A stretch of 64,000 nucleotides of DNA from NCBI GenBank assembly GCA_963666365.2, contig CAXXNF010000002.1, forward strand, positions 832,001-896,000. The letters are read 5' to 3'. The notes under the pieces were generated by a model. That model was not told the DNA's origin and did no database searches. It saw nothing but the letters and a program-made list of their open reading frames with translations. The position numbers were made by a program, and so were the translations under genes. Source of the stretch: Syntrophales bacterium (GTDB taxonomy: Bacteria; Desulfobacterota; Syntrophia; Syntrophales; UBA2210). Below, piece by piece: positions 14,066-55,003 of the stretch (position 1 is the stretch's first letter; every line of letters starts with the position of its first letter).

Positions 14066-14075
14066 GATACATTCC

Positions 14076-15179: not shown

Positions 15180-15195
15180 CGGAGGAGGAACTTCA

Positions 15196-33204: not shown

Positions 33205-33260
33205 CTTTTATTTCAATATTTTTTAATTGCTTCTAAGCGGACGGTGAAAAACGGTTCAAA

Positions 33261-33965: not shown

Positions 33966-34040
33966 GAGTGAAATGAGAAGTGCACCTTAACATTGACAGA
34001 ACCGGGAACTCTCCAATAGAATTATTCGGATAGAGAGTTT

Positions 34041-35300: not shown

Positions 35301-35315
35301 GATATTGAGAAAAAC

Positions 35316-36260: not shown

Positions 36261-36333
36261 GCCGGTTTCGTTCCGGAATTTCAAGATATTCAGTTATCAT
36301 TTTTATGTCGTAGATGGACATGGTTGCAGACAA

Positions 36334-37560: not shown

Positions 37561-37561
37561 C

Positions 37562-38686: not shown

Positions 38687-38767
38687 ACCTTTACTGTTCC
38701 GGGAAGCACCGTATTATGCAAAGAAAAGCCGAATCGATGCTTGCAGGTACTGACACGGGAACAACCT

Positions 38768-39961
38768 ATGAAAGGAAACAGAATTTTCATTTTTGCCTAC
38801 TGGCATGACACGAGATGGAAGAAGTTTGTCGGTGCAACGGTTAAAGCGTGGGACCTCGCACTCAATATGGCGAGGCTTCGTCAAGATGTTGTCTTATTTC
38901 TTCCCAAATACGGTTTTCCGGCCGACAATGACTCTTTTCAATTGGTCCAGGTGCCGGTACTCAATTTTCCGCTTTTGCGTTCCTTATCCTTCAATCTCTT
39001 TTTAATAATGTTTCTTGTCCGTTATTGCAGGAGATGTAAACCCGATGTCGTTTATATCCGCAGGGGCATTTCGATCGTTCCGGCTCTGTTCGCCAGGCTC
39101 AAGAAAGCAGTATTGATTTACGAGGTCAATGACGATCCCTATCCCGATAACAGGGAAAAAACAACCGGTTTCGTTTCCCGCTTTTCTTGGCGGATTGCCG
39201 TGAAGACCGACGAAATAGTCCTTTCGCTGTGCGATGCCGCCTTTATCATCACAAAAGAGATTAAAAACAAGTTGATCCGGCATTTGCCTGAAATCAATCC
39301 GGGGAAACTTCACATTCTGCCTAGCGGCACTAACACGGAACTCTATCGCCCATTGAATAAAATGGAGTGCCGTCGCGTAACTGGGCTCGATCCCGAAGCA
39401 AGATACATAGGATTTATGGGAACGCTCCTGGATCACCAGGGAGTTGATGTTCTGATCGATGCCGCACCATCCGTTATTCAATCCATCCCTTCCGCTGTTT
39501 TTGTCGTGATCGGGGAGGGTCCCATGAAGGAGCAGTGGCGGAAAAGAGTTTGTGACCTGTCTCTTCAGAACAATTTTTTGTTTACCGGTGAAGTCGACTA
39601 CGAACAAACCCCCTTATGGATAAATGCCATGGATGTTTGCACGGCACCATTCCTACTTCAGGCAGGATTGCGGTCTCCCGTCAAGATTTTCGATTACCTG
39701 GCCTGCGGCAGGCCGGTTGTTGCGTCGAGAGTTCCGGGCACGACGGACATCTTCGACGGTTCCGGTGCCGTTAGGCTCGTGGAACCTGAAAACATAGAGA
39801 CTTTCGTTGAAGCTGTCACCTTTTTCCTGCTGAATGGCAGGGTATCGGAGGCGGCAGGAATGGAAGGAAGAAAGCTGGTCGAAACCCATTACGACCGAAA
39901 GAACCTGGCCGGTCGAATAAAAAAAGAGGCCATTAGATTACTGAAGGCCAAAGAGCGTTGA
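38768..39961 (+). CDS. GT4-family glycosyltransferase
   Basis: YEVND, QGVDVLI, SPVKIFDYLACGRPVV. Confidence 0.88.
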   Translation: MKGNRIFIFAYWHDTRWKKFVGATVKAWDLALNMARLRQDVVLFLPKYGFPADNDSFQLVQVPVLNFPLLRSLSFNLFLIMFLVRYCRRCKPDVVYIRRGISIVPALFARLKKAVLIYEVNDDPYPDNREKTTGFVSRFSWRIAVKTDEIVLSLCDAAFIITKEIKNKLIRHLPEINPGKLHILPSGTNTELYRPLNKMECRRVTGLDPEARYIGFMGTLLDHQGVDVLIDAAPSVIQSIPSAVFVVIGEGPMKEQWRKRVCDLSLQNNFLFTGEVDYEQTPLWINAMDVCTAPFLLQAGLRSPVKIFDYLACGRPVVASRVPGTTDIFDGSGAVRLVEPENIETFVEAVTFFLLNGRVSEAAGMEGRKLVETHYDRKNLAGRIKKEAIRLLKAKER

Positions 39962-39991
39962 ACGTGATTTATTCCCGGGATATCGACGTTT

Positions 39992-41119
39992 ATGAAAAAA
40001 TCTTCTGAAATACGTGTGTTACACCTGATTGATTCCTCCGGCGTCGCCGGCGGAGAGCGCTATCTGTTCGACCTGATAAGGCATTCCGATCCTCTATTTG
40101 ATCATCACATTATTTTATCAACTGACGGTCCATTTGTCGGGATGCTGAAGGAGCATAACTGCCGATATACGTTGATCGATATGGAACCCAAATTTTCAGT
40201 CGATTCAATCCGGAGAATCAGAAAATACATTCGTGAGAATAAAATAGAAATCGTGCATACCCATAGCTACCGTTGTAATCTCTACGGCCGGTTGGCCTGT
40301 TTGTTTATGGGGGTTGTGAATCTAGCCACGGCACACGTTTCTCTTTACGATTATCTGGATACACCTCCTTTGGTGAGGCGCATTTATCTGATTGTCGAAA
40401 GAATCACATCTCTCATGGCTTCAAAATATATCTGCATATCCGCGGCAATGAGGGATGATCTTCGAAGAATGGGCATCAGCGATGAAAAACTGGTTGTCAT
40501 TCACAATGGAGTGGATCTTGATGCGTTTTACCCTCGCGCTCTCGACACAGTTCTTTTCGATGAACTGGGTATAGGCGACAATCGCCCCGTCATTGGAACA
40601 GTCGGACGAATGGTGACTGAGAAGGGACAGGTTCATCTGATTGATGCGTTACGACGTCTCGGCGCTCGATGGCCGCGTTTACGATGTCTCTTCATCGGTA
40701 CGGGGCCGCTTCTGGAGGAATTAAAAAAATATGCGAAAACATCGGGGCTCGCCGAAACCTGCATTTTCCCCGGCGTCCGCGCGGATATAGCCAATATTTA
40801 TTCTCTCATGGATATATTCGTCCTTCCCTCGATTCGAGAACCTTTCGGATTGGTGCTTCTGGAGGCAATGGCTTCCCGTGTGCCCATCATCGCCACGGCG
40901 TCCGGGGGTCCGCTGGAATTTATCAGGCCTTATTACAACGGTATACTTGTTTCTCCAGCAAATCCGGGAGAATTATCCTCCCAGATTGAATTTCTCCTGT
41001 CGCAACCCGTGCAATCCTCAGAAATGGCACAGCGCGGATATGAATCAGTCAAAGAAAAATACGGCATAAAGAATACCGTCAGTCAAGTATGTGACGTTTA
41101 TCTTTCATTTTTTAAGTAA
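39992..41119 (+). CDS. GT4-family glycosyltransferase
   Basis: GGERY, IHNGVD, GRMVTEKG, EPFGLVLLEAMA. Confidence 0.92.
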   Translation: MKKSSEIRVLHLIDSSGVAGGERYLFDLIRHSDPLFDHHIILSTDGPFVGMLKEHNCRYTLIDMEPKFSVDSIRRIRKYIRENKIEIVHTHSYRCNLYGRLACLFMGVVNLATAHVSLYDYLDTPPLVRRIYLIVERITSLMASKYICISAAMRDDLRRMGISDEKLVVIHNGVDLDAFYPRALDTVLFDELGIGDNRPVIGTVGRMVTEKGQVHLIDALRRLGARWPRLRCLFIGTGPLLEELKKYAKTSGLAETCIFPGVRADIANIYSLMDIFVLPSIREPFGLVLLEAMASRVPIIATASGGPLEFIRPYYNGILVSPANPGELSSQIEFLLSQPVQSSEMAQRGYESVKEKYGIKNTVSQVCDVYLSFFK

Positions 41120-41324
41120 AAAAGTTATTCTTGGAATACCTTTTATACTATGCTAATGCTTATGCTACACTTTTTGAGAATTGAGTTTTTTTGAAATTGC
41201 TGTAGTTTTAGTCTTGTTGCACAATTATTTGAAATGTTATGTGAATTTACATAGATCTTTTCGGTGGATAATTCTTATCGAGTCTTCTCTTCAAGTAATC
41301 GTAACAAATAAGCATTGTTCGATC

Positions 41325-41615
41325 ATGAAACAAAAGCGTAGACACAAAAAAATAAAGAGATCGAAACATCCTTTAAAAAACGAATGGAAGCAATTTCTTT
41401 TTGTTTTCGTCATATGCCTTGTAGTTGGTATTGCGTTTGCGTTTCTTACCGGCAAGATGCCGTCATTCCTTGACAGAACCATTCAAAAATACACAGATCG
41501 AATAGCGGCTGAACAAATCAAAGGATTCGAAAAAAAAGTGTTAAAAGAGGTAACAGGCGATAATCTTGATGTTGTCAAAAAGTACAAAGATGCGAAGACT
41601 GCCATTGACAACTAA
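41325..41615 (+). CDS. small single-TM hypothetical protein
   Basis: Basic N-terminus MKQKRRHKK, one TM, charged helical tail; stop overlaps that of the convergent gene. Confidence 0.55.
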   Translation: MKQKRRHKKIKRSKHPLKNEWKQFLFVFVICLVVGIAFAFLTGKMPSFLDRTIQKYTDRIAAEQIKGFEKKVLKEVTGDNLDVVKKYKDAKTAIDN

Positions 41616-43030
41616 TTGTTTATCTTATTATTTGTATCACAGGCCTTCATATGATGCACCTTCCGTTCATCTGTCGCTATCGAAGGAATCATTATAACAA
41701 CAGCAGTCAAAAACCAGAACGGTTCCATGATTCTGACGATAATGAATGTATTGGAGCCTACGGCATGAGCAAGCAAGGCTACAAATCCAGCCAAAAATCC
41801 CAGAGCAAGTCCATTAAAGAGGGGTTCCGTCGTGTTCCGGTATACGTGTAAGCCGCTTTTAAAAATGGTAATGAGCAGCCATACGAAAACAGACAAACCG
41901 ATCATTCCAGTCTCCACAATAACTCTTGGAAACTGCGCATCAAGGAATCTATATCCCGTAATACCATAGCCAAAAAGGGGGTGCCTGATAAAATCATTTG
42001 TGAGTACATTCTTCCATGATCTCAGTCTGTCCGATGTTGAGGTATCGATTCGTATTCCGGCAATTTCAATCTGTTCCTTATGATATCGCTGCGTGACAGT
42101 AAAAAGCACCCTCTCTTTTACCGCCTTAGGCAAAGAAAATGGAGCGAGTAAAATTACTGCAATCAGTATCGCAACTAATGCCAGTTTTTTCTTTGAAAAT
42201 AGTATAAGTGCGATCAGCATCGGAATGACCGCAATCCACGAGCTTCTTGAAAGGGTAGCCAACAGAGAAATCACAATTAGCACAGCAAGCACTGCAAGGC
42301 TTTTTTTGTAGCCTGTTGATTCCGATGTAGCCAGCAATCCCAAAACGATAGACAACATGAATACGAGATATCCACCCAGGGTGTTCGGCTCGCCCGTTCC
42401 CCCTTCAAACGGCGCGGTGACCCTCCCGCCCGCGGGGATTTGCGTAATCGCAACGAGACACACGATGCCGCATACGATCAGCATAACAGCGACGAATCGT
42501 TCGATCTGCTTTCGCTCTTTCAGGTGGTTCACCACCATAAAGTAGACGATGTAATATTCAAAATATTTAAGAACAAAGAAAAAACCCGTGGCAATTTTGA
42601 CCCGCCCCATCATGAAGCCAAGCATAGTTGAAATGAGGCAGATAGAGATATACGCAGCGATCGGGACATTCAGGGGCGTTTTCAGAAACAGGCCCAGCTC
42701 TTTGTTGATGGCGGTTTTGAAAAACCAGCCGAAGCCGATGACAACCAAAAGTACGTCGTCAAAACGTATGGTAATTCCGCGGCTTGCTGTCGCACTGCCT
42801 CCCGCCAGGCTGCCGATCATGAATTCCGGGCTGAGAAGCATCGAAACGATGAGAATGTAGAGTGCAACTTCCACGTTAAGGAAGCTGACCACAGCGACCC
42901 CTATTACGGCAGTAAGTAGAAGCGAGGCCGTAATCGATGCCTTTGCGATGATGAATCCGCAAAAGGCGGCTAACAGTATAATTGAGAGTATGGGAACGGC
43001 TGTCCTGATGGTGCTGGTATTTCCCCTCAT
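41612..43030 (-). CDS. Wzy/O-antigen ligase-family membrane protein
   Basis: Multi-TM; EPNTLGGYL, TLSRSSW, HPLFGYG, ETGMIG. Confidence 0.85.
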   Translation of the reverse strand: MRGNTSTIRTAVPILSIILLAAFCGFIIAKASITASLLLTAVIGVAVVSFLNVEVALYILIVSMLLSPEFMIGSLAGGSATASRGITIRFDDVLLVVIGFGWFFKTAINKELGLFLKTPLNVPIAAYISICLISTMLGFMMGRVKIATGFFFVLKYFEYYIVYFMVVNHLKERKQIERFVAVMLIVCGIVCLVAITQIPAGGRVTAPFEGGTGEPNTLGGYLVFMLSIVLGLLATSESTGYKKSLAVLAVLIVISLLATLSRSSWIAVIPMLIALILFSKKKLALVAILIAVILLAPFSLPKAVKERVLFTVTQRYHKEQIEIAGIRIDTSTSDRLRSWKNVLTNDFIRHPLFGYGITGYRFLDAQFPRVIVETGMIGLSVFVWLLITIFKSGLHVYRNTTEPLFNGLALGFLAGFVALLAHAVGSNTFIIVRIMEPFWFLTAVVIMIPSIATDERKVHHMKACDTNNKINN

Positions 43031-45813
43031 GGCACGTTATTTTTGTCGATAAAGGCACTTTCAGTAATTTGTAACACATGGCTTCCGGGATATTGCCGGT
43101 CCAATTTACCGTCGTGCAAGAAAGACAACGCCTTGTCCTTGTCACCATATGTGCCGATAAATACGGCATGCCAAAGGCCGCTGCTTTTACTGTTATAGAC
43201 ACTTACCCAGGCGTCAATACCCGTGGTCTTCAATGATCTGGCCAGGCGTTTCGCATTACCGGCCTCCCGAAACGAGCCGATACGGATGGTGTAGTATCCG
43301 TATTTTTTATGATCTTCACGCGTTGATTCGGTATTGCGCTCCGTCTCTATATTACTTTTTTGTTCTCCCCCTCTGTGTTCTTCCGCAATGACCGGATCTG
43401 GATCACCTTTCTTCACAGCAGCTGCAGGAAGGTCTATTTTTTTTCTCACGATCGGCTTCGCGTCAACGTCAGAAGATGCAGTCGAATTGCCGATGGCGCT
43501 GTCTTTCCACAGCGGAATCACCATTTCCGGAAGGTGTATCAGATCAAATCTGTACAGCGCGTGAGCGCCGAACAACAGCAGGATGAGGAAAAGAATCCAC
43601 ACTTTTACTGCAGGCAAGGCTATTTTTGAAATTTTTCGTTTGGGTGTGTTTTCGTCCTCGCCATAATATTTATAGTATTTGTAATAATCATAATCGGTGA
43701 AGTCAGGGCTTATTTCTGGATTGAGGCCATTAAGCACAACGCCGACGATGTGTGCCGTTGCCCTGTTGAGTTGCGCAACGGCCTGTTTGAGGGTGCCCCT
43801 TCCTACTTTTCCCACTCGATATACCATAGCGATGGCGTCTGAAATCGATCCCAGGATTGCGGCATCCGCGGCGGAAAGAACGGGCGGGGAATCAAGAATG
43901 ATAACGTCGTACTCTTTCTGTGCTTCATCAAGAATCGCCCGGAAGGTCCCTGTGCTCATAAGTTCGGCAGGATTGGGGGGCATGGTGCCGCATGTGATTA
44001 TATTTAAATGATCCAATCCCGGTGTTGTCATAATTTCATCAACAGTCATTTTTCCAACCATGAGATCCGAAACGGTGTTGACCGTATCTTTCCAAAAGTA
44101 ATTCCCCAGGATGACATCGGATAATCCAGGCACTTGATTTATCCCGAACATTTTGGCGATCATCGGTTTTCTCATATCCGCGTCGATAAGGAGCACGTTT
44201 TTCCCTGTTTGTGCGAGTGCAACAGCAAGATTGGCCACAATGAATGTCTTGCCCTCTTGCGGCGAAGAGCTTGTAAGGGTTAGTGTCCTGATATTTTTAC
44301 CGAGCCCGGAGAAACTGAGATTTGTGCGGAGTGTTCTGTAATTTTCCGCAAGCAGCGATTTCGGCGCGTAATGGGAAATAAGCCGCGAATATCTTTGAGC
44401 GGTTTCAGTGTCAATTTCCTCTGAACCGTCTCTTGCTATGGATGCCTTAATTTCGTTGACATCCACGTGCGGGATAAGTCCGATCACCTGGGTGCCGGTA
44501 TATTCTTCTATTTCGGCGATATCGCCAATGGAGGTATCGAAGGTTTCAATCACGAAGGCAAGCAGGGTACCCACGATAAGTCCAATAAGAATGCCGGCAA
44601 ACCCTATTGCCGCCGTTTTAGGAGGATTTATCGGGCGCCCCGGTGCAAGGGCAGGTTTCACAATTTGTATTTCCTCTATCTTCTCGGCTTCTTTAATGAG
44701 AATTTCCTGGTACTTGGTCTCAAGAAGCATGTATAATTCTTTATTTATCCGCACATCCTCTTCCAGTCGACCCAGCGCAAGGCTTCTTTCAGGAAGTGTC
44801 TTTATTTTCGAATCTATTTCATCGATCCTCTTTTGCAGCGCTGCGATATGGGCCTCGAGGATTTTATGCTGATGCTGCAGTTCCGACTCCATGCGGGCGG
44901 TAATTTCTTGTATTGCCTTGTTTATTTCTATTACCCGGGGATACTCCTCGGTATAGGTAATAAGAAGCGTATCTCGCTCCATCATTAATTTTATCAGCTG
45001 ATCGTTAAGCCCTTTATAGAGAGGTGATGCATCGGGGATAAAGTAGCTCGTCTTGGCCGCAAGAGCGGTTTTTCCCGATTTATTGAGTATTGTGGCGGTG
45101 TTTTCTATTGTCTGTAATGCCTCTGTTGTCTTTTTATAGGTATCCTGCAACGACGCATATTGATTCAGAAACTGCGAAGTCTGGGAAGCAACCGCCAAAA
45201 GCTGGTGTTCCTCCCTGAATTTTCTCACGGTATCTTCCGCAATTCTCAGCTTTTCTTTCACTACCTGCAGTTGACCTTCAATAAAGGCCTTTGCATCGGA
45301 AGTCCGTTTGTTCAAGTCAATAAAATGATGTTCTTTATGGACACGTGCGATTGTATTGGCAAGATCGCGCGCAAAGGCGGGATCAGCCGACGTCACCGAG
45401 ATGTTCAGAATGTTGCTGTATCCCTCCTGTTCGGTTTCGATACTGTCACGTATATTGAGTACTATCTTTTGATATTTCAAATTCCTATGTATCTCTTCCG
45501 ATGAAACGTCTGCAGGAATGAGTCCCAGCTCTTTTGCCGCCAATTCAACGATATGATAGCTTTTAATGATTGTTGCCTGGGTTCCCATGTAATCCGTTGG
45601 AGACCATGAAACCGCCTGAACATAAAGGCCTGTAACGGAGCTGGTTTTTTCGATCTTGATGCTTGCAGTGGCCTGGTAGAGCGGCACAGGCTGCCACAGC
45701 ATTGAAAAGAGGACGCTGAAGAAGGCGGTGCATACCACGGCGGCGATAATAATGTATTTCCTCTTCCTGACAACCCTCCAGTAATCACGAAGATTCAGAT
45801 CGTATTGCGCCAT
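43027..45813 (-). CDS. wzc: Wzc-type BY-kinase / polysaccharide copolymerase with extra C-terminal TM and SPOR-like domain
   Basis: N-terminal TM, coiled coil, TM2, Walker A SSSPQEGKT, A' DADMRKP, B IILDSPP, Tyr cluster DYDYYKYYKYY, then a hydrophobic segment and YTIRIGSFREAGNA...WHAVFIGTY. Confidence 0.88.
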   Translation of the reverse strand: MAQYDLNLRDYWRVVRKRKYIIIAAVVCTAFFSVLFSMLWQPVPLYQATASIKIEKTSSVTGLYVQAVSWSPTDYMGTQATIIKSYHIVELAAKELGLIPADVSSEEIHRNLKYQKIVLNIRDSIETEQEGYSNILNISVTSADPAFARDLANTIARVHKEHHFIDLNKRTSDAKAFIEGQLQVVKEKLRIAEDTVRKFREEHQLLAVASQTSQFLNQYASLQDTYKKTTEALQTIENTATILNKSGKTALAAKTSYFIPDASPLYKGLNDQLIKLMMERDTLLITYTEEYPRVIEINKAIQEITARMESELQHQHKILEAHIAALQKRIDEIDSKIKTLPERSLALGRLEEDVRINKELYMLLETKYQEILIKEAEKIEEIQIVKPALAPGRPINPPKTAAIGFAGILIGLIVGTLLAFVIETFDTSIGDIAEIEEYTGTQVIGLIPHVDVNEIKASIARDGSEEIDTETAQRYSRLISHYAPKSLLAENYRTLRTNLSFSGLGKNIRTLTLTSSSPQEGKTFIVANLAVALAQTGKNVLLIDADMRKPMIAKMFGINQVPGLSDVILGNYFWKDTVNTVSDLMVGKMTVDEIMTTPGLDHLNIITCGTMPPNPAELMSTGTFRAILDEAQKEYDVIILDSPPVLSAADAAILGSISDAIAMVYRVGKVGRGTLKQAVAQLNRATAHIVGVVLNGLNPEISPDFTDYDYYKYYKYYGEDENTPKRKISKIALPAVKVWILFLILLLFGAHALYRFDLIHLPEMVIPLWKDSAIGNSTASSDVDAKPIVRKKIDLPAAAVKKGDPDPVIAEEHRGGEQKSNIETERNTESTREDHKKYGYYTIRIGSFREAGNAKRLARSLKTTGIDAWVSVYNSKSSGLWHAVFIGTYGDKDKALSFLHDGKLDRQYPGSHVLQITESAFIDKNNVP

Positions 45814-45834
45814 TCAACGGAATCCTTTTCCCTG

Positions 45835-47022
45835 TCAATCCACCCTTTTAAAGCGAAGATGATCGCTGTTGAAGTAAGAATCTCTATAACTGCCCGGATA
45901 CAGAAAGTAATCAAGAAGCGGCACCGTATTGGTGATGAACTCATTGATGTCGCCTATGACGGTCCTGGGCACGTACACCACATCGCCATTCAGAAGCGCA
46001 ATGTTTTGTGAAATATCGCCCTGTTTGAGCACCTCGTCAAGGTTTGCGGAAATAACCAGGGGTTTCCTGTCATTTGCCACATATCCCCGAATGACCTTTA
46101 TGTCGGTATCTACGGCTATCCTGGTTGTACCGCCCGCCAACGACACTGCGGCAAGAAGATCATGGGCGTCCTTGAGCCGGTAGATTCCCTGCGATGCAAC
46201 TTCGCCGAACACGTAGACGCGCTCTCCGTAGACCGGCAATTCGGGAACGGTGACGATGTCTCCGCTATCGACAACAATATTTTGACTTGTGTCCCCTTTC
46301 ACCATCACGTCGAGCAGGTTCACGGTGTATTTCCTGCCTTTTCTTACGACCTCCACATGACGTAAATCAGCGTTCGCGTATTCCTGGCCCGATATAGCGC
46401 CACCGGCCATTGTAATCAAATCTATTAAGGTGGTCTTACCTTTCAAATAATACGTGCCCGGTCCCGACGCCCTGTAATCCGCGCTGTTTATCTGGCCCAG
46501 AAGAAGCGCACTTTTGCTTTTATAATCTTTTATCATCACTTCGATTCTAGGTGTTTTTATGTATTTTTTTAACGCATTCGTCAGGAGATCATCGACCTCT
46601 CCTGCGGTACGACCGTCAACCATGACATCATCGATAAAAGAGTAGGAGATTTTGCCATCCGGCCGCACCACCGTTTCGTATTCCTGAACCTGGTTCCCTT
46701 CCATGCTTCGAATGAGAAGTACATCGTCGGCGCCGATTTTATATTCCGGAATTCCTCTCTTTTCGGTAAATACACTGTTTTCAGTAGCCGAACTCATCTC
46801 GGCAATCTGTTGTTTTTCGACTGCCCTCTTCTCATTGGATTGCCTGTCCTGATTTTGTACATTACTGACATATTCCCGTGCAGGTATGCCCCGTGCTTCA
46901 AAACTGCAGGCGTATACCGATAAGATGAATATTCCCATGCACATACCAATCATGACACTGCGCACGCGCAGGTATAATTTGACTTTATTTTCTGTGATCA
47001 TTCGGCTCTGTTTCATTTCCAT
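45835..47022 (-). CDS. wza: Wza-like polysaccharide export lipoprotein (PES plus SLBB domains); start uncertain
   Basis: Lipobox-like VYAC, EYKIGADDVL, VRPDGKISY, GDIVTVP, GDVVYVP. Confidence 0.87.
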   Translation of the reverse strand: MEMKQSRMITENKVKLYLRVRSVMIGMCMGIFILSVYACSFEARGIPAREYVSNVQNQDRQSNEKRAVEKQQIAEMSSATENSVFTEKRGIPEYKIGADDVLLIRSMEGNQVQEYETVVRPDGKISYSFIDDVMVDGRTAGEVDDLLTNALKKYIKTPRIEVMIKDYKSKSALLLGQINSADYRASGPGTYYLKGKTTLIDLITMAGGAISGQEYANADLRHVEVVRKGRKYTVNLLDVMVKGDTSQNIVVDSGDIVTVPELPVYGERVYVFGEVASQGIYRLKDAHDLLAAVSLAGGTTRIAVDTDIKVIRGYVANDRKPLVISANLDEVLKQGDISQNIALLNGDVVYVPRTVIGDINEFITNTVPLLDYFLYPGSYRDSYFNSDHLRFKRVD

Positions 47023-47624: not shown

Positions 47625-48512
47625 ATGCTCAAATTATATTCTGAGATACTACAATATCTTGCCGAATTCAGATCTTACGCACTCGATGATAAAGTGCTTG
47701 ATATTAGGCCCGCGATAGAATTTGTCACATTCTTGACAGGAAACCATGAGCACATCGAGCAGTATTATATATCGACACTACAATCTAATCCCAATGAAGA
47801 CTTTTTTCTCTCTCATCAGGCCAATGCGCTTGCCTATGCTCTCAAGATAGGTCGAGGCTTGAAATACGCTCCTGAAAAACTCCATGAACTCGGTTTGGCA
47901 GCACTGCATTATGATGTAGGGCTCCTTAAAATACCTGATTCAATAAAATATAAGGAAGGTGAACTAAGCGATCTGGAATTAAAAACGATACAGACACATG
48001 CCGAAATAGGCAGCATTATCTTGTCCGCCTATCAAGAACAGTATCCCTTTCTCTCACGGGCTGCGCTCGAGCATCATGAACGGGAAATGGGTCAAGGCTA
48101 TCCTTCAGGATTAAAGGGGAATGAAATCAGTGAATATTCCAAAATAATCGGAGTGGTGGATATATACGAGGCCATGATTCATAAAAGACCCTATAGAAAA
48201 GCCTACCTTCAGCATGATTCAATCAAACGGATCCTTAATTCAAAGGGACAACTCTTTCCCCCGTACATAATAAAGGCGCACCTCGAAGAGACAGGACTGT
48301 ACCCGCTTGGAAGTTATGTAAAACTGAACAATGGAGTAATCGGCCGGGTTTGCGCCGTCAACAAGTCGCACCCATTGAAGCCGGTTGTTATATTGTTGTT
48401 TGACAGCAATGGCCGCAAAATGGCAGGGGATAGTAAAATCAATCTTGGAGAACATCCTATCCTCTATATCACAGAAGCGATTGACATGGAAAATCTGCCC
48501 TATGATCGGTAA
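47625..48512 (+). CDS. HD-GYP domain protein with a degenerate HD motif
   Basis: ALHYDVG in place of LLHDIG, HHEREMGQGYPSGLKG, DIYEAM..KRPYR, GLYPLGSYVKLNNG tail. Confidence 0.85.
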   Translation: MLKLYSEILQYLAEFRSYALDDKVLDIRPAIEFVTFLTGNHEHIEQYYISTLQSNPNEDFFLSHQANALAYALKIGRGLKYAPEKLHELGLAALHYDVGLLKIPDSIKYKEGELSDLELKTIQTHAEIGSIILSAYQEQYPFLSRAALEHHEREMGQGYPSGLKGNEISEYSKIIGVVDIYEAMIHKRPYRKAYLQHDSIKRILNSKGQLFPPYIIKAHLEETGLYPLGSYVKLNNGVIGRVCAVNKSHPLKPVVILLFDSNGRKMAGDSKINLGEHPILYITEAIDMENLPYDR

Positions 48513-48632: not shown

Positions 48633-48890
48633 ATGAAAGATGATCCCATCATGGCAGAAGTCGACGGTGAAGGCATGATTATCGATGTCGACCGCGGGAC
48701 CTGTTATTTCCTGAATGAAACCGCGCTGCTTATTTACAAGATGGTAAAAGACGGCAAAGGCAGCCGCGAGATCAGGGATGTGCTGACACGGGACTATGAT
48801 GTCGACGAAGGAGACGCTGAGAGCGACATAACTGCTTTTTTGAAGCAGTTACAAAGCAAGGCTGCAGCATGGGAAAAAAGAGATACGTAA
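48633..48890 (+). CDS. PqqD-family RiPP recognition element (RRE)
   Basis: 85 aa; YFLNETALLIYKMV, YDVDEGDAESDITAFLKQL. Confidence 0.9.
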   Translation: MKDDPIMAEVDGEGMIIDVDRGTCYFLNETALLIYKMVKDGKGSREIRDVLTRDYDVDEGDAESDITAFLKQLQSKAAAWEKRDT

Positions 48891-49129
48891 AACCGGAAAT
48901 CAGGGAGGAATCCCAGATTCTTACCGTAAGGGCATGGGTCACCGCAACGGCCCAGGTGTTGACGCAGCCGACGACTGAAACGAGCGTTTCCCTGCAGAAT
49001 GTCGCAGAATCGGTATCATCGACCAGTCAGGCATTACAGGAGAGGGTGACGAAAACCAGTGTTGCACAGCAGACCGTCATCACGAGAACCGGTGTCGCCC
49101 TGCAGAGAGTCCTTTCCCGGCAAAGATGA
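48869..49129 (+). CDS. putative RiPP precursor peptide
   Basis: 86 aa between the RRE and radical SAM genes; leader KKRYVKPEI (YxxP); repetitive S/T/V/Q-rich core. Confidence 0.8.
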   Translation: MGKKRYVKPEIREESQILTVRAWVTATAQVLTQPTTETSVSLQNVAESVSSTSQALQERVTKTSVAQQTVITRTGVALQRVLSRQR

Positions 49130-49170
49130 TACCCAGGCAATGACACCCGCCTATTGAGCCATAGCTGTCA

Positions 49171-50133
49171 ATGTTACAAACCATAGCCATAGACATAACA
49201 AACTACTGCAATTTCGATTGCATCCACTGCATCAGGGATAAAATTTCACCACGGGCCCATATGGATGCGACATTGCTGAGAGATATTCTTGAACAGATTA
49301 CCTCCGTCGGCATCGGGGAAGCGTGCCTTACCGGCGGAGAACCTGCTCTTCATCCAGAACTCGGTCCCATCGTTAAGAGCTTTTGCGACTACGGCGTGCA
49401 TTTCAGCCTGGTCAGCAACGGATTTCTCTTTGAGGAGTCGATCCTTCCTCTCTTTGACAGGAACGTTCAAAACTACCTGACGGGCGTCAGTTTCAGTCTC
49501 GACGGCGCGACGGCGGCGACTCATGATATGTTGAGGCGCAAGGGAAGTTTCGAACGAGTCATCAGCTCTATCAAGGCATGCACACTAAAAGGGATTTCCG
49601 TATCCGTCAAGAGTATCGTTCATAGAGAAAATATGCACGAAATCGTCGATGTCGCCGTGTTATGCGCCTCCCTTGGCGTTGAAAGTCTCGGATATGTGCT
49701 TCTCACGCCTACGCCGCGGATCATCCAACAGTGCCTTATGCCGAGCGCCGAAGAGTATGAAGCGGTTACCAGACGCATTACCGGAAGGATTGCCCCTTCC
49801 TTCGCAATGATCATTAATATGGAAGGGTACGCCGATCCTGATTTTCGCGTCCCCTTCTGTAATCCCGCCCAGGGGCTTTCGGTAGACCACGAAGGAAACC
49901 TAATATTTTGCTGCAATCTCTCTCACCCAACCGCAGGTGATAGGCCTGATACGTTCGGAGAAGAATATCTCGGCAACATCAGTGACATTGGGATTGAGGA
50001 AGGAATACTGAGGCACTACAGGAAGTTTGCCTGGTTTATGAGCAAAGTGATGAACTCGGGCCCGGCCGGACTTGAAGAAAGAAACTGCTCGGCCTGTTTT
50101 CGCCTCTTCGGCAAGCAGGATTGGATGAAATGA
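49171..50133 (+). CDS. radical SAM peptide maturase 1 with a short Cys-containing C-terminal domain
   Basis: CNFDCIHC, LTGGEP, SNG, FSLDG; C-terminal PFC...IFCC...CSAC. Confidence 0.9.
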   Translation: MLQTIAIDITNYCNFDCIHCIRDKISPRAHMDATLLRDILEQITSVGIGEACLTGGEPALHPELGPIVKSFCDYGVHFSLVSNGFLFEESILPLFDRNVQNYLTGVSFSLDGATAATHDMLRRKGSFERVISSIKACTLKGISVSVKSIVHRENMHEIVDVAVLCASLGVESLGYVLLTPTPRIIQQCLMPSAEEYEAVTRRITGRIAPSFAMIINMEGYADPDFRVPFCNPAQGLSVDHEGNLIFCCNLSHPTAGDRPDTFGEEYLGNISDIGIEEGILRHYRKFAWFMSKVMNSGPAGLEERNCSACFRLFGKQDWMK

Positions 50134-51143
50134 AAGCCCCGACGATCGATATCGTTAATTTCTGCAACTTCTCATGCCGGCACTGCCTTGTAGAAAAATC
50201 GGCGCCACCCCTCTTTATGGACAGGCATCTCTTCTCCCATCTCATGGATCAGATAGGACGTCTCGGTTTCAGATATGCCGGCATCACAGGGTCTGGAGAG
50301 GTGTCGCTGCACCCCCAGATAGAAGATATCCTGTTCAGCCTTGCAGAACACAATATCGGGTTTGAAATGCTTACCAACGGATTCTTGTTTAAGGAGCGCC
50401 TGCTTCCGTTGCTTAAAGATCCGATGATCAGGAAACGAGTCTGTTTGATCGGGTTCAGCCTTGACAGCGCACGGGAGGAGGTGCACGACAACAACAGAAA
50501 GGAAGGCAGTTTCAGGAGAATCATCGAGGCGATCGGATTGTGCCGACTGCTCGGAATACCTTTTTATATCAAGACTGCGGTGACAAACATCAACAAACAC
50601 GAGCTGAGAGACATTCTTCTTTTTACCTCCGGTCTGGGCGCCTTTTCACAGTCATTCCTTTTTCTTCAGCCGACGAGGCGATTGTTGACAGAACAACTCA
50701 GTCCCGACCCCCATGAGTTGTATCGCCTGTTCACGGAACTCAGCTCCTGGCGCCGGATATATCCCAGATTAAAACTGGAGGCTTTCAATACATCGAATGA
50801 TCTCTTCTCTTGCAACGCCTTTTTCAAATGCGGCGTCGATGAAGTGGGAAACTATCTTATCTGCAACAATCTCAGCAATGTGGGAACTTCAGAAGAAACC
50901 TACAAAGGCCCGGAATGTATCGGGAACATAGCAAACGAGTGTCTGGAAGACCTGATAGTGCGGCATCTCAACCTCCTGCCGGAAATTCTCAAGTGGCGGT
51001 TTGACCGTAAGGACATGATTAAGAATGCACCCCTCTCACTGTGCAACTGGTGTTTTTACCAGTTTAACAAACTGGACTGGTTAAAAAATGATTTTCCCGA
51101 CTCACCATGGACACGATGCTTAACCTCAACATTTACGGATTGA
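50130..51143 (+). CDS. radical SAM peptide maturase 2 (paralog of 1)
   Basis: CNFSCRHC, ITGSGE, TNG, FSLDS; C-terminal FSC...LIC...CNWC; ATGA overlap with maturase 1. Confidence 0.9.
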   Translation: MKAPTIDIVNFCNFSCRHCLVEKSAPPLFMDRHLFSHLMDQIGRLGFRYAGITGSGEVSLHPQIEDILFSLAEHNIGFEMLTNGFLFKERLLPLLKDPMIRKRVCLIGFSLDSAREEVHDNNRKEGSFRRIIEAIGLCRLLGIPFYIKTAVTNINKHELRDILLFTSGLGAFSQSFLFLQPTRRLLTEQLSPDPHELYRLFTELSSWRRIYPRLKLEAFNTSNDLFSCNAFFKCGVDEVGNYLICNNLSNVGTSEETYKGPECIGNIANECLEDLIVRHLNLLPEILKWRFDRKDMIKNAPLSLCNWCFYQFNKLDWLKNDFPDSPWTRCLTSTFTD

Positions 51144-51808
51144 AGGTTCAATTACACTTTGCGTCCTGGAGTGACGAAACCAAGGCAGCCGATCTATTCG
51201 CGCTCTTTTTGAACGACGATCACGACGAGGCGGACGTTTCTTTCGAGTTTGGGAAAAATGTGGCGAGACAGGAAATAGCCCGTCATCTTTTTCCTTTTCT
51301 TGCTGAAAGGGAGATATGGGCAATCCATTCAGGGGGGTTTCATTACCATGGCGGGCATCTGACGGTAGGACCTTCCAACTGCGGGAAATCGACCTTCAGC
51401 TACATGGCCGCAAAAAACGACCTCTTTCTCTTGAGCGATGATATTACCCTGATGAAGGATACCGCATCCGGTGTGGAAGTTCTCCCCTTTTACTCGGCAC
51501 TCTATCTGAAACATAAGGTGATTTTACCGGATTCTAGTATTTTCAAGCCCACCCTGCTCAAATACCTCCTGCTGCCGCGATTCAGCAAAGGCGCGTTTTG
51601 CATCAGAAAAATTGAGCAACGCAGCGACCTGCTGCGCCAATTAGTACCCCAATTCCTCTGGTCATACAACAAAAGAGAGCAGGAAAAACAAAAGAGATTT
51701 TTAGAATTACTATGCAATTATCCGGCATTTGAAGTATATTGGAACGAAACGATGTTTGACGATCATCGGTTATTGAGGGACGTACTTGATGCAATTGTTC
51801 AAAATTGA
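51107..51808 (+). CDS. HPr kinase-related P-loop Ser/Thr kinase
   Basis: AIHSGG, GPSNCGKST, LLSDD. Confidence 0.75.
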   Translation: MDTMLNLNIYGLKVQLHFASWSDETKAADLFALFLNDDHDEADVSFEFGKNVARQEIARHLFPFLAEREIWAIHSGGFHYHGGHLTVGPSNCGKSTFSYMAAKNDLFLLSDDITLMKDTASGVEVLPFYSALYLKHKVILPDSSIFKPTLLKYLLLPRFSKGAFCIRKIEQRSDLLRQLVPQFLWSYNKREQEKQKRFLELLCNYPAFEVYWNETMFDDHRLLRDVLDAIVQN

Positions 51809-52196
51809 AGGAAACTCCATGTATCCTCTGCTCAAACACAATGACATGGTCATCGTCGCTCCCCTGTCGGCCGAGCGGCTGAAAACAGGAAACATTGTCG
51901 TATTTAAGAAAGATGCACCCGAATATATTGTTCACCGCCTAGTAAAACGAACAGGAGGCGGCAAGATGCTCTTCCGGGGAGACGGCTATAATCTGCCCTT
52001 GGAATTGATAGGGACAAATGCCGTTGTGGGAAAAGTGACTGGAAGGATCAGGGCGGGGGAATTGATACGTGTCAGCCGCTCCAAGGAATGCGGCTCATGG
52101 GCCATTGCCATGATTAAGGAACGGGTTAAGCGTCTTCTGATGAAGGGCCAACGGGTGGTGCAAGAGGACAGCACATCCGTTTCCGATTATTTGTAA
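51789..52196 (+). CDS. soluble S26/S24-type peptidase (Ser/His)
   Basis: GNSMYP, IVHR, RGDG; no N-terminal TM anchor. Confidence 0.8.
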   Translation: MQLFKIEGNSMYPLLKHNDMVIVAPLSAERLKTGNIVVFKKDAPEYIVHRLVKRTGGGKMLFRGDGYNLPLELIGTNAVVGKVTGRIRAGELIRVSRSKECGSWAIAMIKERVKRLLMKGQRVVQEDSTSVSDYL

Positions 52197-52225
52197 CCTC
52201 GCGCCCGGCGAAATGGAAATGCAAG

Positions 52226-52702
52226 ATGGAAAGACGATCGTTCATCAAGACAATACTTGTGGTTACGGCTCTCCTGCAGGGACTGCCGGCAAGGTTGGTG
52301 TGTTTCGGTGGGAACCGCGCCCTTGCCTCAAACAACCACGACTCGCACGAGACCGATTTTACAGGTTCATATTTTACGGGAACGATTGACCACAGGATCT
52401 TAATACCTGAAGAACTGCGTAGTCCATTAAAAAAAACAGGATTTTATGTTGTCGGCCTGAAAGCCCATGGTGTGCTTCTTGTTTCTGCACAGAGTCCGCT
52501 TATGGAACTCTTCGACGAAATAAAGGATTCCACGCTGTTCCGGGAAGACTTTTTACTGCTCCGAGAGGATAATCTCTTCATAGGCAATGACGGCTATCTG
52601 GTCATTCCTCCGGAAATGCGAAATTTTGCCGGCATCAAAACAGGAAAAGTCTCCATAATCGGACGGCGGAACCTGATCGAAATAATAAATTACGGCGAAT
52701 AG
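52226..52702 (+). CDS. MraZ-like (AbrB fold) protein with a twin-arginine-like N-terminus
   Basis: MERRSFIK + hydrophobic stretch + ALA; FTGSYFTGTIDHRILIPEELR and GYLVIPPEMRNFAGI...VSIIGRRNLIEI resemble the two MraZ repeats. Confidence 0.65.
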   Translation: MERRSFIKTILVVTALLQGLPARLVCFGGNRALASNNHDSHETDFTGSYFTGTIDHRILIPEELRSPLKKTGFYVVGLKAHGVLLVSAQSPLMELFDEIKDSTLFREDFLLLREDNLFIGNDGYLVIPPEMRNFAGIKTGKVSIIGRRNLIEIINYGE

Positions 52703-52823
52703 AAAAGAATTCGAGCATGCAAATGCCGGATCACAACCCGTCAATCCGTTGAAATACCTCCGTTCATCGGCAATAATCGGCGGGCTCTGTTCAACGGACC
52801 CATGATGATGAGACATTGCGTCA

Positions 52824-53996
52824 ATGAAGATGAGACATGAAAAGGAACGGGATGTAGTGCGCACCCTCGCACGACAGTCATTGAGCCAAGACGACGCACT
52901 CAGACTTAAAGAATCCCTGGACGATGCAATTCAATGGCCCTTCATCCTGCGTAGCGCAATTGATCAGGGGATTGCTCCGCTTTTGTTTCATCATTTCAAT
53001 AATCTTGCGCTTATGGAGACACTGCCGGCCTATGTACGGCAAGTATTTTCAAGGCTTTACGGCGAAACGATGCTTCTGAACAGGCACATAACGGCGGTGC
53101 TGTCTGAGTTGGAGAAGGCATGTGAAGGAAGCGAGATTCGGGTAATCGTTTTTAAAGGTGCGGCGCTGCTTTCCACCGTGTACCGAGATATCGCCCTGCG
53201 GCCCATGGAAGACATCGATCTCATGGTCCGACCGAAACAAAAGGATACCGTACAAGCAATCCTTAGTAAACGGGGGTTTGTTCGCGACCCGCTCTATCCT
53301 ATGACCTTCAGACGAGGCGTTATTACTGTGGATGTGCACGATGATTTCCTCTCCACCCACAGGATCCGGAGCCGCCGAAAAATAATGAATGTGCACATGG
53401 ACGATGTCTGGGCGAGATCGATTCCCCTCAATGAAAACCTGCGCCACATTTTCCGTCTTTCTCAGTACGATAACCTTTTAGCCCTTTCATTCCATATTTT
53501 GAAACATCGATTTTCCCGACTGATCTGGTTCGCGGATATCAGGGAATCAGTCAATGCCGGCGATACAATTTTCGGCTGGACCGGATTCCTCGATTACGTC
53601 GATGACGTGGGGGCGCACAAGATCGTGCTTTACGCGTTACTGCTGGCGAAACATCTTGTGACGATGGATGTGCCGGATTATGTGCTGCAGCGCCTTGGAA
53701 AGGATGCTCTCTCGACCCTTGAACACACCATCCTGCGACTTAGATTGGCAGACGCCGATCCGAGGACTGTAATAGATTTGTTATGGATATTTCAAATACC
53801 GGGGGGGGTGAGACGGTTGCAATTTATTTTTGAAAACATATTTCCCAGACAAGAAGTCATGAACCAGATATTCCCTGGCTCATCTCTTCCGGTACACACG
53901 TTTTTGAGGCGGGCAATCATCACCGGATCACGGGTATTCATTGATGGGGCTTCAGCATTCAAATTTGTTGCGAAGGGCGGGCTTCCTCCCCTGTGA
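52824..53996 (+). CDS. nucleotidyltransferase-family protein (NTP_transf_5-like)
   Basis: VFKGAAL...YRDIALRPMEDIDLMV, VDVH, LIWFADI. Confidence 0.85.
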   Translation: MKMRHEKERDVVRTLARQSLSQDDALRLKESLDDAIQWPFILRSAIDQGIAPLLFHHFNNLALMETLPAYVRQVFSRLYGETMLLNRHITAVLSELEKACEGSEIRVIVFKGAALLSTVYRDIALRPMEDIDLMVRPKQKDTVQAILSKRGFVRDPLYPMTFRRGVITVDVHDDFLSTHRIRSRRKIMNVHMDDVWARSIPLNENLRHIFRLSQYDNLLALSFHILKHRFSRLIWFADIRESVNAGDTIFGWTGFLDYVDDVGAHKIVLYALLLAKHLVTMDVPDYVLQRLGKDALSTLEHTILRLRLADADPRTVIDLLWIFQIPGGVRRLQFIFENIFPRQEVMNQIFPGSSLPVHTFLRRAIITGSRVFIDGASAFKFVAKGGLPPL

Positions 53997-54079: not shown

Positions 54080-55003
54080 ATGAACGAAACCTGCCGACTT
54101 GTTACGCGAAGCGATTTTGACGGGCTTGTGTGCGCCGTCCTTTTGAATGAACTGCACCTTATCGACGACATTGTCTTTGCCGAACCGGGCGATTTGCAGC
54201 AGGGACTCATACCGCTGACCGATCGAGACATTACCTGCGATCTTCCCTTCATGCCCGAAGTTCACCTCGCCTTCGACCATCACGCAAGCGAACTCACACG
54301 GGTCGGACAATGTATCGACAATCACGTCATAATTGCTCAGGCGCCATCCACCGCCCGCGTCGTCTACGATTACTACGGCGGGGCAAAGGCATTCCCTCAC
54401 ATATCCGAATACTTGATGAAGGCTGTCGATAGAATAGATTCGGCCCGTTTAAGCCGCGAAGAGATTCTTCATCCCGCAGGCTATATATTGTTGGGATTCT
54501 TAAGCGATCCACGCACCGGTCTTGATTTATTTGAAGGTTTCGCGCTCTCCCATACCGCATTTCTCATGAAACTGATCGATACGATCGGTCGCCGGGAAAT
54601 CCATGAAATTCTCGAAATTCCCATGGTCAAGGAACGGGCTTCGCTTTATTACGAGCATGCAAAGCCTTTTAACCATCTGATAAAACGTTGTGCCTCCGTT
54701 CACGGGAATGTAGTTGTTTTCGACCCTCGCGGTGAAACCGGCCTCTATATAGGCAACCGATTTGTCATCTATGCACTGTATCCCGATTGTAACGTCAGCA
54801 TCACCCTCACCCAGCGGCATGACGGATTTACATCTCTCTCAGTGGGAAAATCGATTCTTGACCGCAGCTCGTCGGCGAAGATAGGCGACATACTTCTTGC
54901 CTTTAACGGGGGCGGCCACGACAATGCGGGATCCTGTCGCGTCGAAAACAACCTCGTCGATACGGTGCTTCGGGAACTCATCTCCATTTTCAAGGCGGCC
55001 TGA
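54080..55003 (+). CDS. DHH-superfamily phosphoesterase (exopolyphosphatase/nanoRNase-like)
   Basis: RLVTRSDFDGLVC, FDHH, GGGH. Confidence 0.88.
   Translation: MNETCRLVTRSDFDGLVCAVLLNELHLIDDIVFAEPGDLQQGLIPLTDRDITCDLPFMPEVHLAFDHHASELTRVGQCIDNHVIIAQAPSTARVVYDYYGGAKAFPHISEYLMKAVDRIDSARLSREEILHPAGYILLGFLSDPRTGLDLFEGFALSHTAFLMKLIDTIGRREIHEILEIPMVKERASLYYEHAKPFNHLIKRCASVHGNVVVFDPRGETGLYIGNRFVIYALYPDCNVSITLTQRHDGFTSLSVGKSILDRSSSAKIGDILLAFNGGGHDNAGSCRVENNLVDTVLRELISIFKAA

Follow-up and report, generated by a model that had tools for sequence, protein, structure and literature searches.

Closest described systems and the eight-gene locus

The SynChlorMet (SCM) cassette is a bioinformatically defined gene set for which, to our knowledge, no product is known. 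In NCBIfam it is represented by the models ScmC (TIGR04249), ScmD (TIGR04248), ScmE (TIGR04250) and ScmF (TIGR04251), and a literature search on SynChlorMet by name found nothing. Among ribosomally made peptides that carry post-translational modifications (RiPPs), lasso peptides offer a second point of comparison: in PMC8498205, a homologue of HPr kinase is described as phosphorylating the C-terminal Ser of the precursor, and in pseudomycoidin a nucleotidyltransferase is described as placing one or two hexoses onto that phosphate. According to PMC10878394, TvgA (TVGG) and TigB (TIGSVS) are Cys-free repeat precursors that receive one modification per repeat from a radical S-adenosylmethionine (SAM) enzyme; the same paper gives TigE as a 469-residue protein with a fused RiPP recognition element (RRE) and a full SPASM domain, in which the Tyr of a GYW motif ligates an auxiliary cluster. 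Radical SAM epimerases, as PMC8326336 presents them, work in an iterative pattern, and their substrates are peptides without Cys in which Val, Thr, Asn and Gln abound. Here we analyze an eight-gene locus of a Syntrophales bacterium, located at positions 48633-53996 of a 64,000-nucleotide stretch of its genome (GenBank assembly GCA_963666365.2, contig CAXXNF010000002.1, positions 832,001 to 896,000 of the forward strand; hereafter, the window). The locus is a real, conserved and uncharacterised RiPP-type system, whose product is most likely a small peptide derived from an 86-residue precursor by extensive modification, and it is an architectural sibling of the SCM cassette, not a member of it. 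We found no published description of this cassette, nor of any combining HPr kinase, PqqD, radical SAM enzyme and nucleotidyltransferase; one paper found on the nucleotidyltransferase family in question, PF14907, concerns phosphonates.

Layout, conservation and distribution of the cassette

A previous interpretation of the window, made without database searches (the sequence-only reading), had proposed one operon of eight co-oriented genes with overlapping junctions, and the listing of open reading frames (ORFs) bears out all of these ORFs, junctions and coordinates: the eight genes lie on the + strand and mostly overlap. The first encodes a PqqD-family peptide-binding protein, or RRE (48633-48890; 85 aa from ATG 48633). 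An alternative start at GTG 48597 (97 aa) is possible for this gene, and the starts of its orthologues do not back it. Its stop at 48890 and the start of the next, short ORF at 48869 overlap by 22 nt. This short ORF, the putative precursor gene (48869-49129), encodes 86 residues, of which 1-27 are leader-like and 28-86 constitute a variable core. Two radical SAM genes follow, rSAM1 (49171-50133, 320 aa) and rSAM2 (50130-51143, 337 aa), joined by an ATGA at 50130-50133 that holds the stop of the former and the ATG of the latter; the ORF caller chose an upstream TTG at 50121 for rSAM2 (340 aa), and the orthologues use ATG 50130. The gene of an HPr-kinase-like P-loop kinase homologous to ScmC (51107-51808, 233 aa) overlaps the end of rSAM2 (stop at 51143), and its own stop at 51808 lies within the gene of a soluble S24/S26 peptidase (51789-52196, 135 aa, or 136 aa from 51786). 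A gap of 29 nt precedes the gene of a protein with an N-terminus resembling a twin-arginine translocation (Tat) signal and an MraZ-fold domain at about residues 45-158 (52226-52702, 158 aa), and one of 121 nt precedes the last gene, which encodes a PF14907 (NTP_transf_5) nucleotidyltransferase (52824-53996, 390 aa). The labels initially given to the peptidase, the nucleotidyltransferase, the PqqD protein and the two radical SAM enzymes are each upheld by significant Pfam matches. In agreement with the same reading, Pfam and NCBIfam detected no YcaO or lanthipeptide dehydratase among the eight proteins, and no lasso cyclase (Asn-synthetase-like) or transglutaminase-like B2 protease among these and the two flanking ones. 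Promoter and terminator scans returned signals no stronger than in shuffled sequence.

To collect related loci, one genome per prokaryote species was scanned with an rSAM1 alignment, which yielded 15 loci, mostly from Syntrophales, Desulfobacteraceae or Thermodesulfobacteriota metagenome-assembled genomes (MAGs), with one labelled Spirochaetia. A metagenome scan with the precursor alignment added 27 more, giving 42 loci in all. As traced by tblastn with the window proteins, the gene order is the same throughout, so that the suspected operon is now matched by conserved synteny in both the genome and the metagenome sets. When the count is limited to loci whose sequence reaches far enough on the side concerned, rSAM1 was found in 34 of 34 loci, rSAM2 in 31 of 31, the peptidase in 26 of 26, the P-loop protein in 25 of 26 (absent in L023), the nucleotidyltransferase in 18 of 20 (absent in L023 and L026) and the Tat-signal, MraZ-fold protein in 19 of 26; the PqqD gene is present in 36 of the 37 loci having at least 300 nt upstream. 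In 39 of the 42 loci, tblastn detected the short ORF, invariably flanked by the PqqD and rSAM1 genes. Of the remaining three, L026 carries a divergent copy of 62 aa, and the sequences of L023 and L025, which begin within rSAM1 or immediately ahead of it, include no upstream DNA. Homologous clusters thus do carry the short ORF with its YxxP motif, in keeping with the sequence-only reading. Such a recurring arrangement is far beyond chance.

Several loci depart from the common layout in individual genes. In L024, which ends within the peptidase gene, the kinase gene is missing and rSAM2 is followed directly by the peptidase gene; in the related L023, the nucleotidyltransferase gene is absent as well. 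In L013, an extra 452-aa ORF with a weak match to Methyltransf_28 (E 8e-8) is inserted between the Tat-MraZ and nucleotidyltransferase genes (13915-15273 of that locus), and an equally large gap is seen here in L014 and L034; these three lineages may add a methylation step. In L019, the rSAM2 orthologue consists of two overlapping fragments and is some 100 nt longer (10965-12199); a misassembly of the MAG, a frameshift or a short insertion could account for this.

The cassette occurs rarely, and its distribution is patchy. In 40 genomes from the same family or order, no orthologue of rSAM1 was found, and the best matches there, limited to the core, show 31-34% identity. Applied to 401 genomes sampled from the phylum with a threshold of E <= 1e-60, the rSAM1 profile retrieved five, the window's genome and four scoring much lower, and a cassette-type match is found in the window's genome only. 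Two of the four were inspected in their surroundings (loci L071 and L072) and rejected as members: each has a single radical SAM gene (35-36% identity) and no other cassette gene was detected there.

The precursor: an invariant leader and a Cys-free repetitive core

A search of 5.8 billion proteins recovered 37 homologues of the 86-aa protein, 65-99 aa long and 40-81% identical to it. No model of Pfam or NCBIfam matched it even at E <= 10, and a protein atlas search gave no usable match. In the alignment of homologues, the first 27 residues are nearly invariant, with the consensus M-G-K-K-x-Y-x-x-P-x-I-R-E-E-S-Q-I-L-T-V-R-A-W-V-T, and the remainder is variable. Positions P9, E13, E14, L18, T19, V20, A22, T25 and Q68 are invariant, Y6, which forms the YxxP motif with P9, is kept in at least 90% of sequences, and so are T35, T36 and T61 of the core. 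The terminal residues of the core vary and are mostly basic. The short ORF is therefore a real conserved gene with a leader/core pattern. Like RRE-dependent radical SAM RiPP pathways in general, the cassette encodes a PqqD domain beside a short protein whose leader is conserved and whose core varies.

Together with copies read from the related loci, the homologues make up 64 distinct precursor sequences, 61 of them complete and no longer than 100 aa. None of these 61 contains Cys, as had been noticed for the window's own precursor, and the core Cys residues that act as thioether donors in sactipeptides and ranthipeptides are accordingly absent. The cores are rich in Thr (18%), followed by Gln, Ala, Ser and Val (11% each). 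The repetitiveness first seen in the window is a property of the family: compared with 100 shuffles, self-similarity rises sharply at lag 11 (z = 29) and again at lag 25 (z = 19), both in residues. A loose pattern picks out 170 repeat units in the 61 cores, with the consensus T-x-T-(S/N)-(V/Y)-A-L-Q-x-(V/A/I)-(L/V/I/F), and a Thr followed by Gln at +7 is enriched (z = 11). The core of the window's precursor consists of four units of the T-x-T-S-V-A-L-Q type. Five loci (L019, L027, L029, L040 and L042) carry two precursor genes in tandem, and in L019, L027 and L040 the leaders of the two are near-identical while the cores differ. On these grounds we consider it probable that the 86-aa protein is the substrate modified by the cassette. 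The precursor of L024 (343-912) is a longer variant of 188-189 aa: behind a leader of the common kind come three repeat units and then an extended tail rich in Pro, Thr and Arg.

The presumed partner of the leader is the PqqD-type protein (Pfam PqqD, E 7.7e-13). Its best NCBIfam matches are lasso PqqD chaperones, at 44.5 and 38.9 bits against cut-offs of 70 and 80. We predicted its complex with precursor residues 1-40 using an alignment of 20 PqqD orthologues and obtained a score of 0.41, compared with 0.04 for the best of three controls; the mark it passed is also passed by 116 of the 157 solved complexes and by 2 of the 215 mismatched pairs, and passing scores of at most 0.60 come from just 18 of the 157 solved complexes and from both passing mismatches. 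The runs share at least 85% of contacts, and the pLDDT of the partner is at least 56. The model lends weak support to leader binding, and the pass may also reflect likeness, because solved RRE-leader complexes exist.

Two paralogous radical SAM enzymes

Pfam Radical_SAM matches both rSAM1 (E 4.8e-23) and rSAM2 (E 3.6e-19), which are paralogues of each other (36% identity, E 3.8e-50), and both contain the CX3CX2C motif, at C13/C17/C20 in rSAM1. The conserved C-terminal Cys residues of rSAM1 number only five (C230, C247, C248, C306 and C309); rSAM2 has a similar set plus one. The SPASM model (PF13186) matches rSAM1 with E 0.025 and 15.3 bits against a gathering score of 21.5 and leaves rSAM2 unmatched, and neither enzyme possesses the seven-Cys motif for two auxiliary clusters that characterizes SPASM domains. 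The Cys pattern leads us to infer one auxiliary cluster per enzyme, of the twitch kind.

Neither enzyme falls into a characterised family, those of cofactor biosynthesis included. The top NCBIfam matches of rSAM1 are ScmF (84 bits), tungsten cofactor maturase (84) and heme b synthase (82), and that of rSAM2 is NirJ2 (68), all against cut-offs of 380-500 bits. In profile searches of the PDB, rSAM1 matched SkfB (E 1.5e-19), BlsE, YydG (E 1.6e-8) and PqqE over the core only. Since likeness to characterised enzymes is confined to the common core, the type of reaction cannot be deduced from it, and the earlier statement that the product class is not assignable remains valid. Our search for rSAM1 homologues gave 46 sequences. 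In an alignment of 26 rSAM1 homologues, the residues before the first C-terminal Cys are E-G-(Y/F/H/A)-(A/S), and the GYW motif of the cyclopropyl synthases is not present.

Comparison with systems acting on Cys-free peptides shows partial likeness in each case. The poly-cyclopropylglycine RiPPs (TvgA/TvgB, TigB/TigE) likewise have, according to PMC10878394, Cys-free precursors of short Val/Ile, Thr, Ser and Gly repeats. However, the repeat of the window's precursor has 11 residues instead of 4-6, the RRE is a separate protein, the radical SAM enzymes have 320-337 aa, and rSAM1 is devoid of GYW. The epimerases of epipeptides (YydG/EpeE) and proteusins (PoyD) also act on Cys-free substrates, but the match of YydG spans residues 3-98 of rSAM1 only, and the window's precursor has no nitrile-hydratase-like leader.

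The pathways of pyrroloquinoline quinone (PQQ) and mycofactocin have at their core a PqqD-type chaperone combined with a radical SAM enzyme and a peptidase, and these, along with a small peptide, are shared with the cassette. The cassette could by analogy make a peptide-derived cofactor, as PqqA/D/E and MftA/B/C do, with the peptide consumed to free a small modified residue pair. We regard this as quite improbable. The matches in question, PqqE (52 bits), mycofactocin maturase (57) and PqqD (19), are far below cut-offs; the core is variable and repetitive, lacking a fixed terminal residue pair; precursor genes are duplicated with divergent cores; and the cassette adds a kinase and a nucleotidyltransferase. 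In addition, no conserved dependent oxidoreductase is encoded nearby, and the rare, patchy distribution, with the window's genome alone among the 401 sampled and none of 40 relatives, speaks against a cofactor. A role in anti-phage defence, of the viperin or nucleotide-modifying type, was also considered, as PADLOC pVip models match the two radical SAM enzymes (64 and 41 bits) and AbiEii weakly matches the nucleotidyltransferase (E 4e-4). The pVip matches span the generic radical SAM core (residues 5-159) and score below many peptide maturase models, the defence models leave the other six proteins unmatched, and the PqqD domain and leader/core peptide point to peptide modification, so that we give hardly any credence to a defence function.

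The kinase and the nucleotidyltransferase

The P-loop protein gave no significant direct match to any Pfam or NCBIfam family, and ScmC did not match it even at E <= 10. A profile of 11 orthologues revealed its relationships. Against the PDB, the best match was the HPr(Ser) kinase 3tqf (E 0.0063), and HPr kinases accounted for 4 of 9 matches. Against 1.84 billion representative proteins, the profile retrieved 1724 at E <= 1e-3, 42 at 1e-10 and 11 at 1e-30. Hpr_kinase_C of Pfam was present in 23 of 37 chosen profile matches that were scanned, and HprK_rel_A, HprK_rel_B, ScmC or hpr-ser of NCBIfam in 26 of 28 scanned, all below cut-offs. The window protein itself falls outside PF07475 and HprK-related A and B, and its relatives match these below cut-off except for three Pfam matches. 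Aligned with hhalign to genuine ScmC, the family gave a probability of 94.6% and E 7e-8 over 150 columns.

The AlphaFold2 model of the protein (pLDDT 92.7) matches ATP-dependent phosphoenolpyruvate (PEP) carboxykinases (E about 1e-6, TMq 0.51-0.58) and at least six HprK/P entries, the matches listed including 1ko7, 2qmh, 1kkl, 1kkm, 1knx, 1jb1 and 3tqf. PEP carboxykinase and HprK/P belong to one fold class, and the model has this fold. Conserved sites comprise H74, a Walker A motif (G88-x-S-x-x-G93-K94-S-T96) and D111-D112; H74, G93, K94 and D111 are invariant in 32 sequences. The kinase label of the sequence-only reading, for which there is no direct family match, is thus backed by the profile and fold searches. 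Judged by sequence profile and predicted fold, the protein is placed with the HPr-kinase-like peptide kinases (ScmC, HprK-related A/B) as a separate family.

The nucleotidyltransferase is a clear member of PF14907 (E 5.1e-44, 151.2 bits against a gathering score of 31.2). A pairing of HPr-kinase homologue and nucleotidyltransferase, next to a PqqD-type RRE and a YxxP leader, is also described for paeninodin and pseudomycoidin in PMC8498205, and the window's PqqD protein scores best against lasso PqqD models. Unlike lasso peptide clusters, the cassette has neither lasso cyclase nor B2 protease, and radical SAM enzymes take the place of the class-defining ones. Moreover, the precursors of the window type do not end in Ser, and the PqqD protein remains below the lasso cut-off (44.5 against 70 bits).

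Relationship to the SynChlorMet cassette

We compared the window with a genuine SCM locus, L064, in which genes for ScmD (134 bits), ScmE (603), ScmF (571), ScmC (304), an S26 peptidase and a PF14907-like protein follow one another. The PF14907-like protein is 27% identical to the window's nucleotidyltransferase (E 1e-25), the window's kinase family aligns to genuine ScmC, and the six enzyme roles and their order are common to both loci. In contrast, all window proteins are far below the SCM cut-offs, which are 400 bits for ScmE and ScmF, 100 for ScmD and 125 for ScmC: rSAM1 scores 84.4 bits for ScmF and 72.5 for ScmE, rSAM2 58.4 and 49.9, and the PqqD protein 20.4 for ScmD. The window's radical SAM enzymes resemble each other more than either resembles ScmE or ScmF, and they lack the full set of SPASM Cys residues. 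The pair appears to be a separate duplication. ScmF-class genes above cut-off occur in 14 of the 401 sampled genomes, the window's genome not among them. The window cassette also has the short precursor gene and, in its relatives, often the Tat-MraZ gene, and L064 has neither. Because the six roles and their order are shared while every SCM cut-off is missed, the cassette is a sibling of SCM in architecture and not one of its members; the comparison with SCM drawn in the sequence-only reading was apt; the enzyme order shared with L064 also takes in the S26 peptidase and PF14907, and it does not extend to membership.

The lack of a short ORF between ScmD and ScmE in L064 bears on the possibility that the 86-aa protein is an accessory factor, such as an adaptor, regulator or scaffold, and that the enzymes act on a substrate encoded elsewhere. 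In that locus the same enzyme order does without the ORF, and a protein with a PEP-CTERM-like tail is encoded just upstream. Nevertheless, in the window's relatives the short ORF is present wherever it could be assessed and always occupies the same place, it shows the leader/core pattern of conservation and tandem copies, and the complex prediction weakly supports leader binding. Furthermore, the window's own genome holds one precursor copy and has no second copy or other candidate substrate of the precursor family. An accessory role is therefore very improbable. The upstream protein of L064 (5739-6497) is a secreted protein of 252 aa with the tail P-E-P-A-T-L-I-L-L-G...R-R-K, encoded directly upstream of ScmD; it may be a candidate substrate or a coincidence.

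The peptidase and the Tat-MraZ protein

The peptidase matches Pfam Peptidase_S24 (E 6e-9) and S26 (E 2e-5), and its best NCBIfam match is sigpep_I_arch, at 51.3 bits just under the cut-off of 51.85. It opens at the catalytic Ser box, with no N-terminal membrane anchor. Across 12 orthologues, H49 and D65 never vary and at least 90% retain S10, a Ser-His-Asp pattern which we take to fit the archaeal/SipW/Sec11 kind. We infer that this soluble enzyme is the leader peptidase. Since the invariant V20-x-A22 of the precursor fits the -3/-1 rule of signal-peptidase-type enzymes and an S26-type peptidase adjoins, cleavage would take place before W23 (V20-R21-A22 / W23), which would make residues 1-22 (48869-48934) the leader.

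The Tat-MraZ protein starts with M-E-R-R-S-F-I-K, followed by a hydrophobic helix. Its Pfam matches are both sub-threshold, MraZ with E 0.02 (15.3 bits against a gathering score of 23) and TAT_signal with E 0.18; 29 homologues were collected, some of which bear the JGI label MraZ. In the AlphaFold2 model (pLDDT 74.6), residues 21-41 are poorly predicted. All 16 Foldseek matches in the PDB at E <= 1e-3 are MraZ, with TM 0.48-0.60 among the ten listed, and the model thus has the MraZ fold (a double SpoVT/AbrB-like unit) even though the protein stays under the Pfam gathering score; the label proposed from sequence gains support in this way. An MraZ fold behind an export signal would be an unusual employment of a DNA-binding fold. 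The protein presumably works outside the cytoplasm. As the conserved cassette has no exporter, one may speculate that it takes the folded product along on its way through the Tat pathway. Where the Tat-MraZ gene is missing, ABC export may be used instead. In L026, which carries the Spirochaetia label and lacks both the Tat-MraZ and the nucleotidyltransferase genes, an ABC exporter (ABC_membrane + ABC_tran; 4417-6159) is encoded about 900 nt downstream of the peptidase gene, and in L023 an ABC-2 transporter pair directly follows the peptidase gene.

A possible maturation pathway

Taken together, these results make it likely that the operon is an autonomous RiPP-type maturation cassette with the 86-aa ORF as its substrate. 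In the pathway that we propose, the PqqD-like protein would bind the nearly invariant N-terminal leader and hand the peptide to the two paralogous radical SAM enzymes, each with its CX3CX2C motif and Cys residues for about one auxiliary cluster. These would modify the 11-residue T-x-T-(S/N)-(V/Y)-A-L-Q core units. Candidate reactions are epimerisation, intra-residue C-C bonds on Val and Thr/Gln cross-links, the last suggested by the conserved Thr/Gln pair standing seven residues apart. The HPr-kinase-like kinase would then phosphorylate Ser/Thr of the peptide, and the PF14907 enzyme could extend the phosphate with a nucleotide-derived or sugar group, as in phospho-glycosylated lasso peptides. 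The soluble S26-type peptidase would cut off the leader, probably at V-R-A/W, and the MraZ-fold protein with the Tat-like signal would act outside the cytoplasm or take the product out. The repeated radical modification and the phosphorylation or nucleotidylation of the core that the sequence-only reading envisaged are likewise putative.

Several considerations weigh against this interpretation. Many of the 42 loci are near-duplicates, so that the counts overstate their independence: L030-L033 are one sequence from different samples, L041 and L043 are similar to L022 and L034 to L013, and L028 shares 79-99% identity with the window. For the P-loop protein, no direct match to a kinase family reached significance, and the radical SAM enzymes resemble characterised ones over the common core only, by which their reaction cannot be assigned. 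Lasso peptide kinases act on a C-terminal Ser (PMC8498205); the precursors here end otherwise, so the target of the kinase must differ. No exporter was found within the conserved cassette, judging from the flanks of related loci. Finally, L064 shows that related enzyme sets occur without a short ORF and may act on other substrates.

Uncharacterised cassettes of an RRE and radical SAM enzymes are numerous. The radical SAM enzymes, kinase, peptidase and precursor of the present one are outside every curated family, and its chemistry is therefore likely undescribed, on a Cys-free repeat peptide. The cassette provides a relative of SCM with an obvious substrate, which would make that group testable, and it would extend the tailoring pair of kinase and PF14907 enzyme beyond lasso peptides.

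Genomic neighbourhood

Directly upstream of the cassette lies a gene for an HD-GYP-type (HD_5) protein (47625-48512, + strand; Pfam HD_5, E 6.6e-28). Divergent from it are genes for a Wzc-like chain-length/tyrosine kinase and a Wza-like polysaccharide export protein (43027-47022, - strand; NCBIfam Wzc, eps_fam and pepcterm_export, among others), which form the end of a Wzx/Wzy-type polysaccharide locus (31732-47022). This locus encodes, besides these two, an MOP flippase, a methyltransferase, an O-antigen-ligase-like membrane protein and at least five glycosyltransferases with sub-threshold PEP-CTERM/XrtA-associated matches. Of the 27 assessable loci, 10 have an HD-GYP homologue next to the cassette, on one side or the other and usually together with export genes; two arrangements occur, and Wza/Wzc-like genes flank it in L016, L018, L021, L028, L030-L032, L040 and L049. 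The occurrence of two orientations makes mere inheritance of one arrangement less likely. We treat the HD-GYP gene as a recurrent neighbour whose membership in the pathway is putative. The recurrence of HD-GYP and polysaccharide export neighbours hints that the cassette functions in the biofilm or cell envelope of its hosts, sediment bacteria with a sulfate-reducing or syntrophic way of life.

These neighbours raise the possibility that the short protein does not yield a diffusible natural product and belongs instead, as a modified peptide, to the matrix or cell surface, in connection with exopolysaccharide and biofilm production. The Thr/Ser/Gln/Val-rich repeat peptide would be phospho-glycosylated and then laid down together with the polysaccharide of the adjacent locus or attached to it. 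Consistent with this possibility, sugar-modifying genes lie upstream in L043 and a glycosyltransferase gene lies near the cassette in L026; the peptidase has an archaeal/SipW-type signal peptidase as its best match, with fitting Ser, His and Asp residues, and SipW processes the biofilm matrix protein TasA. The pairing of kinase and PF14907 enzyme, for its part, gives phospho-glycosylation in pseudomycoidin (PMC8498205). On the other hand, the flanks of the other 17 assessable loci are unrelated to these genes and contain housekeeping functions, no exosortase was found in the window's genome (94% complete), peptide export would be putative, and the link to SipW would hold by analogy only. The PEP-CTERM model matched nowhere, controls included, and so carries no weight either way. 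A matrix peptide is accordingly a rather unlikely explanation compared with an autonomous maturation cassette.

The lines of evidence may be joined into a more specific picture, which we consider improbable in its full extent. The cassette would represent a new RiPP class in which two twitch-like radical SAM paralogues put an undescribed modification on each 11-residue unit; the ScmC-type kinase and the PF14907 enzyme would phospho-glycosylate the peptide; the soluble SipW-type peptidase would remove the leader; and the product would leave the cell on the MraZ-fold carrier, by way of Tat, and have its place of action in the polysaccharide matrix. In that case, the cassette would also show the kind of substrate handled by the unexplained SCM cassettes.

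Just downstream of the cassette, the window contains a 307-aa ORF (54080-55003) that is unmatched in Pfam, NCBIfam and PADLOC. By eye, it has DHH and GGGH motifs, as in DHH phosphoesterases. Elsewhere it is located beside the cassette only in the near-identical L028.

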